Shown one piece after another: positions 24,678 through 30,782 of a stretch of DNA of 64,000 nucleotides. The notes under the pieces are model-generated. The model saw only the letters and a program-made list of their open reading frames with translations, was not told where the DNA came from and did not search any database. Origin of the DNA: Thermoplasmatota archaeon (GTDB lineage Archaea; Thermoplasmatota; E2; DHVEG-1; B18-G2); contig JAPDJO010000029.1 in NCBI GenBank assembly GCA_029259115.1, positions 60,975 to 124,974 of the forward strand. Reading direction: 5' to 3'. Position 1 is the first letter of the stretch, and each line of letters begins with the position of its first letter. Position numbers and translations under genes: made by a program.

Positions 24678-25064
24678 TTATTGAAGGATTGGTTCTTCAG
24701 AATCGACTGGCATTGCTTTGCATATCGGTCTGGGAAATGTTAACCTGCACCAAATTCCACAATTTGTACAGAAGAAAGTTCCATAGCACTGCGTGAATCT
24801 GCATGTTCTACCCATGGTGACCAGCTCTTCATCACTGTTTGGAAAAGCGAGAGAGATTTCTGCAATCACGTCTTTTTTAGAGGATATAAATTTTGTTTCT
24901 ATAGTTGGCAATTTTTCGATTTCACCACTTACTCTTATCTTGTACAGGGGAGTCTCTGTATTTTTTTCTAGCCTGTTGTATACTGCTAACGATAGTGCAG
25001 AAACGGATAGCACAGCCAGCAAAAACCCTATAAGAATGTATCTTCCGAACTTCCTCTTTACCAT
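24678..25064 (-). CDS. Secreted protein with Cys/Thr-rich C-terminus
   Basis: N-terminal signal/TM helix; TPLY..R; C-terminal TCRFTQCYGTFFCTNCGIWC...C. Confidence 0.65.
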   Translation of the reverse strand: MVKRKFGRYILIGFLLAVLSVSALSLAVYNRLEKNTETPLYKIRVSGEIEKLPTIETKFISSKKDVIAEISLAFPNSDEELVTMGRTCRFTQCYGTFFCTNCGIWCRLTFPRPICKAMPVDSEEPILQ

Positions 25065-25142: not shown

Positions 25143-27440
25143 ATGGATGCAAAGGGATTGATTAAAGCGCTAAAAGAGGAGGCAGAGAAATATAATGAGA
25201 GGAGGATGGTTGTCCTATCTGGGAGTAGAGATAGAAGTTACAAGATAATAAAATCGTTTTTGAAAAAATTGGAAGGAAAATCTGTGTTAGTGGCCTATCA
25301 GCTGGATCAAGATATAGACATTGAAAAATATCATCTCAAGGACTGTTCAAAGCTACTTGGAACAACGTATGATTTACTTGTGATAGACCTCTATCACTCA
25401 TTCCAACCTTCAGATATAGGAAAACTTTACGGTGTTGTTCGTGGTGGCGGTCTAATTTTTCTTATAGTTCCTCCTCTGGATGAATGGAAGCATATGCTGA
25501 ACAAATACCACTACAGAATCCTCACACCGCCATACACAGAGGATGATGTGAGGAGAAATTTTATTCCATGGTTTGTGAGAAAGCTGGAGGAGCATGAAGG
25601 TATAGCTATAGTGGAAGATGGCATTATCAAGAAGAAAGGGTTTTTCGAGAGTAAAGTAGAAGAAAAGAAAGATTTGAAGTTTCCAAAGGATCACATCTTT
25701 GAAAAAGAGATCTATGAGTATGCATTGACTCAGGATCAGGTAGATTTCATAAGGTTAATGGAAGAATTGATCGAAAAACCAAATCCTGTAACAGCCATAA
25801 TATTAAAATCTCATAGAGGGAGGGGAAAATCCAGCGCGATAGGTATAGCATTGCCAGCGCTAGTAGAAAATTTACTAGAGTTCAAGAGGAGAGTAAGAGT
25901 AATAATCACAGCCCCTGAACTAGAGAATGCCCAAGAAATATTCAGATTCTCTGAGAAAGTATTGAAGGAGAAAGGTTATGAACTAAGGAAGAGGGATAGA
26001 GAAGGATTAATTTTCGATATCTCCTCAGAGAACTTTACCATAGAATATTTCAAACCAGCAGATGCAATAGAAAGATATGCGGATATTATCATCGTAGATG
26101 AAGCCGCATCAATACCTCCAAACCTCCTTTTATCTCTCCTAGACAGGACAAACCGCATAATCTATTCTTCTACAGTTCACGGATACGAAGGAGCAGGAAG
26201 AAGTTTTTCCATAAGATTTTTGCAAAGATTGAAGAAGAAAAATGTTAAAATCCTCGAGTTTGAGATGACTGAACCTATAAGGTATAGTATAAATGACCCA
26301 ATAGAAAGATGGGTATTTGATACACTTTTGCTCGATGCGGAGGCGCCTGACGTAAATGTTGATCGTGTAGATGATTTGGTTTACGAGAAATTAAAGATAG
26401 AAGATCTTCTGGAGAATGAAGATAAATTGAGAGAATATTTTGGAATTCTTATATTGGCACATTATAAAAATAATCCAAATGATTTTGCCATGCTGTGTGA
26501 TGCACCGAATCATATTGCCAGAGCTATGAGCTATAACGGGAAAATTGTTTGTTCTCTGCAGATTGCGTATGAGGGGAATCTTCGAGACGAGGATTGTAAA
26601 AGTGTTTACTATGGAGGCAAAATGATCTTAGGTAATGTTATTCCTCAGTTGATGATAAGACATTATAGAGAGATGAAATATGGCAAGTACAGAGGGATGA
26701 GGGTTGTCAGAATAGCTGTTCATCCCGATAATTTTGATAAGGGTATAGGTAGCAAGGCTTTAGAAAATATTTTAAAAGAAGCTGAAGAAGAGAATCTCGA
26801 TTATGTAGGAGCTAGCTTCGGTGCAACCTCTAAGTTAATAAGGTTCTGGCTCAAAAATGGCTTTTTGCCTATGCACATCTCTACGACCAGGAATGACGTG
26901 AGTGCGGAATTTTCTGTAACAGTAATGAAGCCTCTAAGTAAAGATTTCGAGAAGGAGCTTAAAACATTAAGAAAGAGATTTATGAGAAGATTCATGTACT
27001 GGCTATTCGAACCCTTGAGAGATCTCAACAGCAAGGTTGCTCTGGATATACTCGATTCATATGAAGGTGAAAATATAGATCTCGGATTGGATAAAGAAGA
27101 GATAAATAGGTTATTGGCGTATGCATTCGATGTTGGTCTAACTTACAGAACTGTAAAGGACTGTATATTCAAGATGAGCTACAACTTCTTCCTAAGTAAT
27201 AGAAAAAATGTGTTAAGCAGGAGCGAAAGAATGCTACTTCTGGTAAAAAATATACAATGTAAGAGTTGGGAAAGAACAGCCGAGATTTTAGATACTGATG
27301 AAGAAAGATGTAAGATTATGATGAGAAGGATAGTAGAGAGATTGATATTCGAGTTTTATGGTGATAGGAATGAAGTGCTTGAATTTCAAGAAAAAGTTCA
27401 AAGAATCCTTGCTGAAAGGCAGGAAGACATCGACTCTTAG
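25143..27440 (+). CDS. tmcA: tRNA/RNA cytidine N4-acetyltransferase TmcA/NAT10
   Basis: RGRGKS helicase motif, VDEAA, STVHGYEGAGR, EPIRY, AHYKNNPND, GNAT motif RIAVHP...GIGS. Confidence 0.95.
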   Translation: MDAKGLIKALKEEAEKYNERRMVVLSGSRDRSYKIIKSFLKKLEGKSVLVAYQLDQDIDIEKYHLKDCSKLLGTTYDLLVIDLYHSFQPSDIGKLYGVVRGGGLIFLIVPPLDEWKHMLNKYHYRILTPPYTEDDVRRNFIPWFVRKLEEHEGIAIVEDGIIKKKGFFESKVEEKKDLKFPKDHIFEKEIYEYALTQDQVDFIRLMEELIEKPNPVTAIILKSHRGRGKSSAIGIALPALVENLLEFKRRVRVIITAPELENAQEIFRFSEKVLKEKGYELRKRDREGLIFDISSENFTIEYFKPADAIERYADIIIVDEAASIPPNLLLSLLDRTNRIIYSSTVHGYEGAGRSFSIRFLQRLKKKNVKILEFEMTEPIRYSINDPIERWVFDTLLLDAEAPDVNVDRVDDLVYEKLKIEDLLENEDKLREYFGILILAHYKNNPNDFAMLCDAPNHIARAMSYNGKIVCSLQIAYEGNLRDEDCKSVYYGGKMILGNVIPQLMIRHYREMKYGKYRGMRVVRIAVHPDNFDKGIGSKALENILKEAEEENLDYVGASFGATSKLIRFWLKNGFLPMHISTTRNDVSAEFSVTVMKPLSKDFEKELKTLRKRFMRRFMYWLFEPLRDLNSKVALDILDSYEGENIDLGLDKEEINRLLAYAFDVGLTYRTVKDCIFKMSYNFFLSNRKNVLSRSERMLLLVKNIQCKSWERTAEILDTDEERCKIMMRRIVERLIFEFYGDRNEVLEFQEKVQRILAERQEDIDS

Positions 27441-27699
27441 AATGGGTATAAAAGATTACAAAGTTGGAGAAATAGTTAAAGTGCTTGCTGGAGATGAAGA
27501 AATAGGTCTAGCCAAAATAAAGGAAGTAAAACTTGTACAGTGGAAGGATATAGGAAAAAAGGATGTACTGAATGAGGGTATGAAAAGGAAGAAGGATCTT
27601 AAGAGGGAACTAAAAAATATATACGGAGACTTCGATGATGAAAGCGTCTTTACTCAAATCGTGTTTAAAATGCTCAAGGAAAGAAAAAGATGGGATTAG
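27370..27699 (+). CDS. ASCH domain protein (YqfB-like)
   Basis: GRKTSTLR, D..NEG, L..IY motifs; SD GGTGAT before ATG 27370; overlaps the tmcA 3' end. Confidence 0.85.
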   Translation: MKCLNFKKKFKESLLKGRKTSTLRMGIKDYKVGEIVKVLAGDEEIGLAKIKEVKLVQWKDIGKKDVLNEGMKRKKDLKRELKNIYGDFDDESVFTQIVFKMLKERKRWD

Positions 27700-27760
27700 A
27701 TTTATAATTCTTTTTAGCATTCATAAAATCGGATGGGATGCAAAGAAGGAGGTGTAACTT

Positions 27761-29689
27761 TTGACAAGAGAGATAGCATATGAATTGGCAAAAAAGCAAA
27801 GAGAAATTTCGGTTGCAGAATTCTTTGAGAGAAATAAACACATCTTAGGTTTTGGAAATCCAACGAGAGCTATAGTCACAGCAGTCAAAGAGGCTGTAGA
27901 CAACTCCTTGGATGCCTGTGAGGATGCAAGAATACCTCCGGACATAATTGTTGAAATTAGAGAAGGAGAGAGGGAAGGAGAGTATCTCATAGCAGTTGAA
28001 GATAACGGTCCAGGAATAGTTGAAAAACATATCCCGCCAATATTTGGTAAACTGTTATACGGATCTAGATTCCATGCCATCAGACAAAGTAGAGGTCAAC
28101 AAGGAATAGGGATATCTGCTGTTGTCTTGTATGGTCAATTGTCCACAGGAAAACATGCAAAGATTTTATCCAAGATAGGAGAAAATGAGCCAGCGTATCT
28201 ATACGAGATAGCCATAGATACTCAAAAAAATGCCCCTGAAATAATAAGGAAGGAAATCATAAATTGGGACAAAAAACACGGAACAAGAGTAGAGATCTGG
28301 ATTATCGGAGATTTTAGCAGAGGCAGAAGATTCCTGTATGAGTACCTGCAGAACACTTCCATAGTTAATCCTCACGCTCAAATAACATTCATAGAGCCTT
28401 CTGGAGAAAAACATGTATTCGAAAGGGTTACAGATGAATTACCGAAACCAACAACAGAACTAAAAAAACCCCATCCCCATGGAATAGAGATGGGTACACT
28501 TTTGAAGATGCTTAGATCTACAAAGGCCAGAAAACTCTCAACATTTCTAAAATCTGAATTTGTCTCTATGGGTGAAAGAACCACTCAGGCGGTTTGTAAG
28601 AAAGCCGATTTAGATCCTAATCTCGATCCAAAAGCTCTAACTAGAGAACAAGCGTCAAGACTCCTAAAAGCATTCAAAGAAGTAAAGATAATGGCTCCAC
28701 CTACAGATTGCTTATCTCCGATTGGTGAGCTTTTAATAAAAAGGAGTTTAAAGCATGAAACCAAAGAAATATCCCCAGAATTTATAGTCGCAACAACAAG
28801 ACCTCCCTCTGTTTATTCTGGTCATCCGTTCCAAGTTGAGGCGGGTATAGTTTATGGTGGAAATCTTGATAAAGAATCTCCTGTAAAGATCCTGAGATTT
28901 GCGAACAGGGTTCCTCTTTTGTATCAGCAAGGGGATTGTGTAACAACTATCGCGCTTTCGAATATAGATTGGAGAAGATATGGACTTGAACAGAGGGGAG
29001 GGAAAGGGATACCAGTTGGACCAGCCATATTTTTCATACATGTTGCATCGACAAGTGTTCCCTTCACATCAGAAAGCAAAGAAGCTATAGCAGACATACC
29101 AGAGATAGAGAATGAAGTAAAACTTGCTTTAAGAGAGTGCGCAAGGAAGATGCAGCAGCATATATCAAAGAAAGAAAGAAGAAAGAAAACAAGGGAAAAA
29201 TTCGTCCTTATAACAAAAATCCTTCCAGAGATAGCAAAGAAATCCGCTGCTATGCTCAATAAACCTGTTCCTAACATAGATGGAGTTATAACAAAGATAA
29301 TGGACGTTGTATGGATAGATGATAAGATAGAATATGAAAAAGTGAAAAGGCTTCAGACAACTTTAGATGGATTTGATGAATCTAGAGATTATGGATGTAT
29401 AACTAAAAGCAAGATAACTATTGTTAACTATAAGAGGAAACCAATGAAGTTTAATCTGTATGCAATAATCCCTCCAGAAGCCATAGTTGGCTTTGTAAAT
29501 CCTAAGCCAGAGAAGATCGAGAAAAGATATATAAAGTGGAATGTTCCGACTCTGAAACCTACTCAAAAGATTGAACTCTATTTCGAACTTGCTGGCCTAA
29601 ATGAGGGTGATTTTGACGAGAATGAAATCTATGTTGAGGGAATAAATCCTGAGTATGTTATAGGTGCAAATAAATGGGAGGGAGAATGA
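27761..29689 (+). CDS. top6B: DNA topoisomerase VI subunit B
   Basis: SVAEFF; GHKL motifs [23 protein letters not shown]; RFANRVPL. Confidence 0.97.
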
Positions 29690-29690
29690 T

Positions 29691-30782
29691 ATGAGTAGCG
29701 AGGTAGCATTGCAAAAACTTAGCGAGATAGCCCTTAAGGTGTATACCGATCTAGAGAATAATGAGATACCAAAGATAACTCTACCAACGAGAGCAAAATC
29801 AAATATAAGATTTGACGAAAAATTGAACGTCTGGAAATATGGAAAAAACAGAACATCAAGAAGCGCGAAAACCCTCGATGGTGCCTATATGTTACTCAGG
29901 ACTATGTATGTTGCTGAATTCATTAAAACAATGATAGAACAGAACAAATCATCTACACTGAGAGAGTTATATTATATATCAGAGGGGTGGGACCTTGCAA
30001 AGTTCAACTCCCAACAGGAATCTGACAATCTTGCAGAAGATCTGGAAACAATAACAGGTTGCTTAAGAGAAGACTTTAGACTAAGACCGGAAGAAGACGG
30101 AGCTAGGATAATTGGTAACATTGTTGTTGAGGAGAAAACAAGAAGTGGAGAAAAAAGGAGGATACACTGTCAAGATGATGTTGGGGATGCAGGATATTCG
30201 ATACCGTATAATGTTGAGAAGGAAAAGATAAGATTTGCTGAGTGTGATGCTGATTTTGTCTTAGCCATAGAGACTGGTGGTATGTTCGACAGATTGGTAG
30301 AGAATGGTTTCGATGAGAGTCATAGAGCGATACTGGTTCACCTTAAAGGACAACCTGCGAGATCTACAAGGAGATTCATAAAGAGGTTAAATGAAGAGCT
30401 CAGGTTACCTGTATTCGTATTTACTGACTGTGACCCGTGGAGCTACAGAATATACGCAAGCGTAGCATATGGAGCTATCAAAACAGCACACATATCTGAG
30501 TACCTAGCAACCCCCTCAGCCCAATTCTTAGGTGTCGCCCCGTCAGATATAGTTAATTACGATCTTCCAACAGATAAATTAACGAATGAGGACATAAAAG
30601 CTCTAAAAAGTGAGCTGACGGATCCGAGATTTAACACAAGATTTTGGAAAGATGAAATCAATCTGCAGCTAAAATTAGGGAAAAAATCTGAGCAACAGGC
30701 TTTGGCCAAGTATGGTCTGGATTACGTAACAGACGTTTACCTTCCCGAAAAGCTAACTGAATTTGGGGTGCTGAAGAAGTAG
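29691..30782 (+). CDS. top6A: DNA topoisomerase VI subunit A
   Basis: TLRELYY (catalytic Tyr), [14 protein letters not shown] motif DCDPW, EQQAL. Confidence 0.97.

Follow-up and report, generated by a model that had tools for sequence, protein, structure and literature searches.

A predicted YqfB-type N4-acetylcytidine amidohydrolase gene overlapping the 3' end of tmcA in Thermoplasmatota archaea

A question under active study is whether cells can undo RNA acetylation (N4-acetylcytidine, ac4C) and by what means the mark is removed or recycled. The closest described counterpart of the small gene discussed here is yqfB of Escherichia coli, which encodes an ac4C amidohydrolase. According to the sections of the YqfB study used here (PMC6972931), the mutants K21A, T24A and R26A show no activity, E74A is slowed 100- to 1000-fold, and H70A is about 10-fold slower and not dead. 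The same sections give Asp27 and His70 as 100% conserved among bacterial YqfB-like proteins, and its authors propose a Thr-Lys-Glu triad with the Arg as oxyanion hole (PMC6972931). In a 64,000-nucleotide stretch of the genome of an uncultured Thermoplasmatota archaeon from vent sediment (contig JAPDJO010000029.1, positions 60,975 to 124,974 of the forward strand; hereafter the window), a gene for an ASCH-domain protein of this type starts inside the 3' end of tmcA, the gene for RNA cytidine N4-acetyltransferase (TmcA), and the two genes are considered here as a candidate unit of ac4C writer and ac4C hydrolase.

In the ASCH/TmcA full-text literature, only two 2026 preprints among the matches listed deal with ASCH-domain proteins, and of the literature on ASCH domains and acetyltransferase gene neighbourhoods only one of them (10.64898/2026.08.01.741249) treats this pair. 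Its matched passages place YqfB-clade ASCH genes in a conserved operon with TmcA/Nat10 in 'several prokaryotes' and mention ASCH domains of another clade that are fused directly to NAT10-like acetyltransferases. They also argue that YqfB and EOLA1 serve the salvage of free ac4C, with structured RNA being protected, and state that YqfB does not bind RNA (10.64898/2026.08.01.741249). As reported in the matched passages of the other, the February 2026 preprint (10.64898/2026.02.27.708502), 19 tested ASCH proteins, archaeal ones of the GKTR type included, strip ac4C from tRNA in vitro, and most of them hydrolyse the ac4C nucleoside. According to the same passages, the Lys and the Thr/Glu of the octapeptide are essential, overall charge is no predictor of tRNA binding, some basic ASCH proteins bind tRNA, a C-terminal helix-turn-helix (HTH) extension gave strong tRNA binding in Afu3 and Pku4, and ac4C rises with temperature in thermophiles (10.64898/2026.02.27.708502). 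Both the pairing with TmcA and the activity of archaeal ASCH relatives are already reported in these two preprints. A term search of the February preprint found no discussion of tmcA gene linkage, the word 'archaea' has 0 occurrences in the main text of 10.64898/2026.08.01.741249 as searched, and the matched passages of the latter do not mention a distribution in Thermoplasmatota, a long +1 overlap over the catalytic motif or a split in isoelectric point (pI).

In the window, tmcA lies at 25143-27440 (+) as a 765-amino-acid (aa) open reading frame (ORF), and the YqfB-type ASCH gene at 27370-27699 (+) encodes 109 aa with a pI of 9.8, a predicted ac4C amidohydrolase. With moderate confidence, the two are read as a two-gene unit in which an ac4C writer and a YqfB-type ac4C amidohydrolase would be made in step, the hydrolase mainly clearing and recycling ac4C from RNA turnover and possibly also acting on exposed ac4C on RNA. 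Both the hydrolase activity and its physiological substrate are predictions, the activity being drawn from homology and from the published assays of relatives. A coupled ac4C writer and YqfB-like deacetylase or salvage enzyme had already been proposed in the preliminary description of this locus; the catalytic residues, the structural match to YqfB, the conserved linkage and the two preprints all argue for that proposal.

The small ORF matches Pfam ASCH (PF04266) with an E-value of 2.5e-11 and 44.6 bits (cut-off 21.2 bits), and the NCBIfam model nearest to its product is the YqfB ac4C amidohydrolase (PRK04980 / NF003443). The motifs listed in the preliminary description are all present in the translation, GRKTSTLR at residues 17-24, DVLNEG at 65-70 and L..IY at 81-85 of the 109-aa form. 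An AlphaFold2 (AF2) model built from five orthologues has a mean predicted local distance difference test score (pLDDT) of 90.2. In a Foldseek comparison with the PDB, the top matches of this model are E. coli YqfB 9kyf_B and 9kyh_B (E 1.5e-7, template modelling (TM) score 0.79-0.85), and the superposition on YqfB, which had been proposed as a check, gives a root-mean-square deviation (rmsd) of 1.6-1.7 A across 101 columns at 25% identity. The matches that follow YqfB are other ASCH proteins, namely 3s9x, 1t62, ZmASCH, PH0355 and TTHA0113.

The HMMER alignment places K19, T22, R24, E69 and Y85 of the window's protein on K21, T24, R26, E74 and Y89 of YqfB. K19, T22, R24, D65, G70 and Y85 do not vary among 19 tmcA-linked orthologues, and position 69 holds E or D in every one of them; the K, T, R and Y are likewise fixed in a broader sample of 30 relatives, where the acid is again always E/D. 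The codons of the octapeptide GRKTSTLR, which holds Lys19, Thr22 and Arg24, are read from the sequence at 27418-27441 (+). The Glu69 codon lies at 27574-27576 (+), aligned by HMMER (1te7) to YqfB Glu74, which is the acidic member of the triad proposed for that enzyme, and the Tyr85 codon at 27622-27624 (+), aligned to YqfB Tyr89, a substrate contact, with the residue invariant in relatives. A full HMMER scan returned 257 homologues at E<=1e-3 and 31 at E<=1e-10; a word-index search had given only 6 close relatives. This is the sole ASCH gene of the genome (1.40 Mb, 94 contigs, 98.7% complete). By analogy with YqfB, the small protein is very probably an enzyme that removes the acetyl group from ac4C.

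The 765-aa ORF shows the domain order of TmcA, with TmcA_N (PF08351, E 7.7e-35), the helicase/ATPase NAT10_TcmA_helicase (PF05127, 2.8e-55) and GNAT_acetyltr_2 (PF13718, 7.6e-40) all above cut-off and with Walker A and B motifs. Residues R225-S231 of Walker A and D319/E320 are invariant in 19 orthologues. The tRNA-binding C-terminal part (tRNA_bind_2, PF13725) matches weakly (E 0.006, under cut-off). With NF041296, a model built on haloarchaeal TmcA proteins, the protein scores 580.4 bits over residues 6-741 of 765, below the 700-bit equivalog cut-off.

The linkage of the two genes is not peculiar to this genome. Within the window's own family, an ASCH orthologue was found in five of the seven other genomes, and it overlaps the 3' end of tmcA in all four whose contig reaches upstream. 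Since the gene downstream differs among relatives, tmcA and the ASCH gene form the conserved unit. For a survey of the phylum, the same 301 Thermoplasmatota genomes were searched with the TmcA helicase family and with ASCH, a true TmcA being taken as E<1e-47. True TmcA is present in 18 of them, and in 13 of these 18 an ASCH match shares contig and strand with it, some 1 kb past the helicase domain. In a 14th genome (G135) a contig end falls within the pair; here the contig with the ASCH gene (L010) bears the 3' part of tmcA. The ASCH clade thus stands at the tmcA 3' end in 14 of the 18 TmcA-bearing genomes; in the remaining four (G048, G169, G084 and G129) no ASCH match neighbours tmcA. A profile of the linked clade matches 14 of the 301 genomes, all 14 with TmcA, and none of the 283 Thermoplasmatota genomes lacking it. 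The three archaeal control genomes, M. jannaschii, H. volcanii and S. acidocaldarius, matched the TmcA helicase family and not ASCH, and the pair is not universal. TmcA itself is patchy in Thermoplasmatota, its 18 genomes belonging to six families (f1, f4, f15, f19, f32 and f33), and it was found in 0 of 35 genomes of f2, the sister family in the window's own order.

Beyond this survey, a scan of named genomes, with one genome per species, gave 31 loci, labelled Thermoplasmata, Thermoplasmatales, DHVE2, Aciduliprofundum, unclassified archaeon and, in one case, Methanobacteriota. The end of tmcA overlaps the ASCH start in 30/30 informative loci, the contig of the 31st beginning within the ASCH gene. 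Across these loci, the identities of TmcA and ASCH to the window's proteins drop in parallel, from 87/88% to about 40/40%. More divergent relatives were sought on metagenome contigs that carry no taxonomy, their ASCH proteins being 28-43% identical to that of the window where tblastn detected a match. Of 50 such loci, 30 have tmcA directly upstream and one more has it at 356 nt; seven, with less than 700 nt of upstream DNA, gave no tmcA match, and 12 have no tmcA although 900 nt or more of upstream DNA is available. In these relatives up to 82 nt of DNA separates tmcA from the ASCH gene.

Next to the linked clade, ASCH domains of other kinds were met in the phylum. The three f19 genomes carry a second paralogue of the YqfB-like clade away from tmcA (G052:C54:7785-8087, G062:C125:1406-1708 and G072:C101:2765-3067), in open frames of 193-195 aa, a length that would fit the ASCH-plus-HTH type of the February 2026 preprint. 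In G169, locus L008 (G169:C249, 300-2543, -) is a 748-aa ORF with an ABC/AAA_21-type ATPase region (about 433-607) and a C-terminal ASCH domain (634-694); this ORF has no relation to tmcA and is possibly a fusion of a defence type. A complete 1.9-Mb genome of the same phylum with no TmcA match (G247:C1) has four ASCH matches in frames of 125-131 aa, and two of them, at 524210-524437 and 1075139-1075366, score identically, which suggests a repeated element.

The junction between the two genes is an unusual one. As the preliminary description had it, the ASCH gene starts 71 nt inside tmcA with a Shine-Dalgarno (SD) site of its own, the ATG being at 27370 and a GGTGAT SD-like site, read from the sequence, at 27360-27365 (+), 4 nt 5' of it. 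The open frame runs over 27358-27699 (+) and gives 113 aa if its first ATG is used. Starting at the next ATG, 27370, yields the 71-nt overlap in the +1 frame and the 109-aa product, and this ATG aligns with the start of every ASCH orthologue. The earlier ATG (27358) coincides with Tyr-Gly codons in the tail of TmcA and is missing from DHVE2-type orthologues; public gene callers place the start at a TTG at 27379 (P0001, 106 aa). The overlap at 27370-27440 (+) is therefore dual-coding, for the C-terminal tail of TmcA in frame 0 and for ASCH residues 1-23 in frame +1. The tmcA stop codon TAG (27438-27440) falls within the Leu-Arg codons of the octapeptide, so that the catalytic motif spans both the final codons of tmcA and its stop. 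Across the junctions compared, the ASCH frame is +1 to tmcA in 33/33, with overlaps of 20-95 nt and of exactly 71 nt in 14/33. An SD-like tetramer lies at -17 to -4 from the ASCH ATG in 33/33 loci. The letters of this site double as the codons of a conserved Gly-Asp in the TmcA tail, and for that reason its conservation is not ascribable to an SD role alone.

Codon-position entropy was computed for the 14 loci with the 71-nt overlap, anchored on the ASCH ATG. In the part that is ASCH only, variation gathers at the third ASCH codon position, with an entropy of 1.26 (0.45 at the first position and 0.29 at the second), and in the part that is tmcA only the entropy is 1.13 at tmcA position 3 against 0.55 and 0.38 elsewhere. 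Within the overlap the total variation falls, and what is left of it sits at position 3 of the ASCH codons, corresponding to position 1 in tmcA (0.66 vs 0.35 and 0.33). Over the overlap, the ASCH proteins share a mean pairwise amino-acid identity of 0.78, and the TmcA tails one of 0.59. Based on these entropy and identity figures, the ASCH frame carries the stronger constraint in the overlap. The ASCH ORF is a real gene under purifying selection; a chance ORF is ruled out by the codon-position pattern together with the conservation.

With an ATG and SD of its own, the ASCH gene begins within the tmcA tail; both genes are therefore most likely carried on one transcript, and the output of the hydrolase would follow that of the writer. 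In the proposed mechanism, by analogy with YqfB, the base would be Lys19, the nucleophile Thr22 and the acid Glu69; Arg24 would form the oxyanion hole and Tyr85 would hold the nucleoside, and the products would be cytidine and acetate. The main substrate would be the free ac4C nucleoside or nucleotide, perhaps with short unstructured fragments, coming from degraded acetylated RNA; exposed, off-target ac4C might be stripped as well. With constitutive co-expression alongside the writer, efficient stripping of cognate RNA sites would amount to a futile cycle, a consideration that favours a small substrate. The lack of an HTH extension in the window's ASCH protein is counted on the same side.

Contigs of two RNA libraries from one sediment sample bridge tmcA, the ASCH gene and the start of top6B (X9, 26839-27980; X17, 27237-27891). 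These are compatible with co-transcription, as contigs that cannot prove a single transcript and to which DNA carry-over may have contributed. The runs were used as assembled contigs (four compared among 24), in which the contig ends and the holes in the X17 cover are not interpretable, nor can the ends be read as transcript ends. The contigs of both RNA libraries (X9 record 19 and X17 record 10) begin at 25185, 42 nt inside tmcA, and the DNA contigs at 25143. The stretch turned up in sequencing runs from 11 studies whose labels are hydrothermal vent, marine sediment or marine metagenome, and these habitat labels fit a thermophile.

Several observations weigh against a YqfB-type enzyme that works mainly on small products of RNA turnover. 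The ASCH protein reaches only 28.8 bits with PRK04980 / NF003443, far under the 93-bit cut-off, and is by these models a distant relative of YqfB and not an equivalog. Asp27 and His70, conserved in the YqfB-like bacterial proteins, are Met25 and Asp65 here. No clear route for the use of cytidine was found, as a genome search for uridine kinase (PRK/uridine kinase) and uracil phosphoribosyltransferase (UPRTase) gave only sub-cut-off matches, other archaeal cytidine and nucleoside kinases not being part of that search. The sole gene of the cytidine/dCMP-deaminase family in the genome (46221-46763, +, 180 aa) looks like a dCMP deaminase, its best NCBIfam models being ComEB (63.6 bits) and the anti-phage dCTP deaminase, both far under cut-off; the genome's nucleotide genes do not decide between roles on free ac4C and on RNA. 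The strong basicity of the protein in the window's clade fits binding to nucleic acids, and tRNA was deacetylated in vitro by all the ASCH proteins tested, as the matched passages of 10.64898/2026.02.27.708502 report. These last two points lead to an eraser or proofreader at the RNA level, which would bind tRNA or rRNA and remove ac4C in place, either reversing acetylation or cleaning off-target TmcA sites, with the Lys-rich surface as its grip on RNA. Such a role is possible, if doubtful. The pI is 9.8 here and 9.4-10.2 throughout the window's clade (17/33 linked loci), the extra lysines in helix 1 lie beside the catalytic loop (KKKFKESLLKGRK in the window's clade vs SEDFMEKIKRGEK in the DHVE2-type proteins), and besides the in vitro activity of 19/19 proteins some basic ASCH proteins do bind tRNA (10.64898/2026.02.27.708502, matched passages). 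However, the linked orthologues of the DHVE2 type are acidic to neutral, with a pI of 4.8-8.9 in 16/33 loci, and the basic surface is thus not part of the conserved pair; therefore, the conserved function needs no basic, RNA-binding surface. The preliminary description had taken the very basic protein as a hint of action on RNA. The basicity itself holds, whereas the step from it to RNA is weakened by these 16 orthologues and by the finding, in the passages of 10.64898/2026.02.27.708502 cited above, that charge does not predict tRNA binding. In addition, the 109-aa protein has no counterpart of the HTH extension of Afu3 and Pku4, structured RNA is described as protected and YqfB as not binding RNA (10.64898/2026.08.01.741249, matched passages), and obligate co-expression with the writer would presumably waste acetyl-CoA and ATP. 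A narrower version, which we hold to be unlikely, is that only the window's clade switched substrate. Its lysine substitutions are all encoded inside the tmcA overlap and go with a pI of about 10, against about 5 in the DHVE2 type; through these helix-1 changes, a hydrolase that recycled nucleosides would have become an RNA-bound eraser or proofreader made together with TmcA, trimming exposed or off-target ac4C while buried cognate sites survive.

The two other explanations considered concern the overlap more than the chemistry. The small protein might be a non-catalytic partner of TmcA, an ac4C- or RNA-binding adaptor or reader subunit that is made in step with the enzyme via the overlap and stays bound to it. 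Eukaryotic Nat10 needs an adaptor for tRNA, overlapping genes with strict co-occurrence are typical of the subunits of one complex, and the parallel fall of TmcA and ASCH identities would suit such an arrangement. Yet all the catalytic residues of YqfB are kept under selection, which would be needless in a mere binder, and four genomes of the phylum and the three archaeal controls have TmcA with no ASCH found, so TmcA works without ASCH; a partner role is improbable. Still less credit is given to a programmed +1 frameshift in the overlap that would produce a TmcA-ASCH fusion, the small ORF then not being, or not only being, a separate gene. The long overlaps and the +1 frame in 33/33 loci could be taken that way, and fusions of NAT10-like enzymes with ASCH domains of the other clade are mentioned in the matched passages of 10.64898/2026.08.01.741249. 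The constant frame is explained by common descent, though, and each of the 33 loci has the orthologue-aligned ATG with its SD-like site. The overlap varies between 20 and 95 nt with no conserved slippery site noticed, the genes lie up to 82 nt apart in divergent relatives, and, as weak evidence, no longer fused homologue occurred among 8000 scored protein-database candidates. The two-gene unit of writer and hydrolase, translated from separate starts, is kept as the preferred reading.

On the 5' side of tmcA lies valS on the opposite strand, followed by a 128-aa ORF at 24678-25064 (-), between valS and tmcA. Hydrophobic over an N-terminal stretch and Cys-rich in its C-terminal part, it gave no Pfam or NCBIfam match. 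The 3' neighbours of the ASCH gene are top6B and then top6A. A 61-nt spacer ahead of top6B (27700-27760, +), with an A/T-rich TTTATAA-like box at 27701-27707, a T-run at 27711-27715 and GGAGGTG at 27748-27754 before the top6B TTG start at 27761, may, judged by its letters only, mark the end of the tmcA-ASCH unit. Directly downstream, top6B (27761-29689) and top6A (29664-30782) form a second overlapping pair, sharing 26 nt (29664-29689).

Because the preprints had already described the pairing and the activity of relatives, the gain from this locus is incremental. A deacetylase gene that is locked to the writer across many archaeal lineages is strong genomic support for both enzymes acting on one chemical mark. 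What the locus adds is a clean phyletic picture for Thermoplasmatota, with the linked clade found only in TmcA genomes and always located at the 3' end of tmcA, a dual-coding overlap of unusual length in which the catalytic motif lies, and a natural pair of basic and acidic orthologues that could be compared for RNA versus free nucleoside as substrate. Specific to the lineage are the long +1 overlap holding the catalytic motif, the strict co-occurrence with a patchy TmcA (18/301) and the basic/acidic split among orthologues.

Compared with the nearest known systems, the ASCH gene of the window overlaps tmcA, whereas in E. coli, to our knowledge, the tmcA and yqfB genes are unlinked. E. coli YqfB (1TE7, 9KYF, 9KYH; PMC6972931) is, like the window's protein, a stand-alone ASCH domain of about 100 aa and its best structural match, and the two align, with conservation, at the Gx-K-xx-T-x-R octapeptide, the acid (E74/E69) and the Tyr (Y89/Y85). 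The two differ in that they share only 25% identity, Asp27 and His70 are not kept in the archaeal protein, and the latter has a pI of 9.8 while YqfB is reported, in the matched passages of 10.64898/2026.02.27.708502, not to bind nucleic acids. Afu3, Pku2 and Pku4 differ from the 109-aa protein in having a C-terminal HTH domain (10.64898/2026.02.27.708502, matched passages). By their description in the same passages, Afu2ASCH, Afu3ASCH, Pku2ASCH and Pku4ASCH resemble it as archaeal ASCH proteins with a Thr in the octapeptide, and hydrolysis of ac4C is reported for them on the nucleoside as well as on tRNA (10.64898/2026.02.27.708502).

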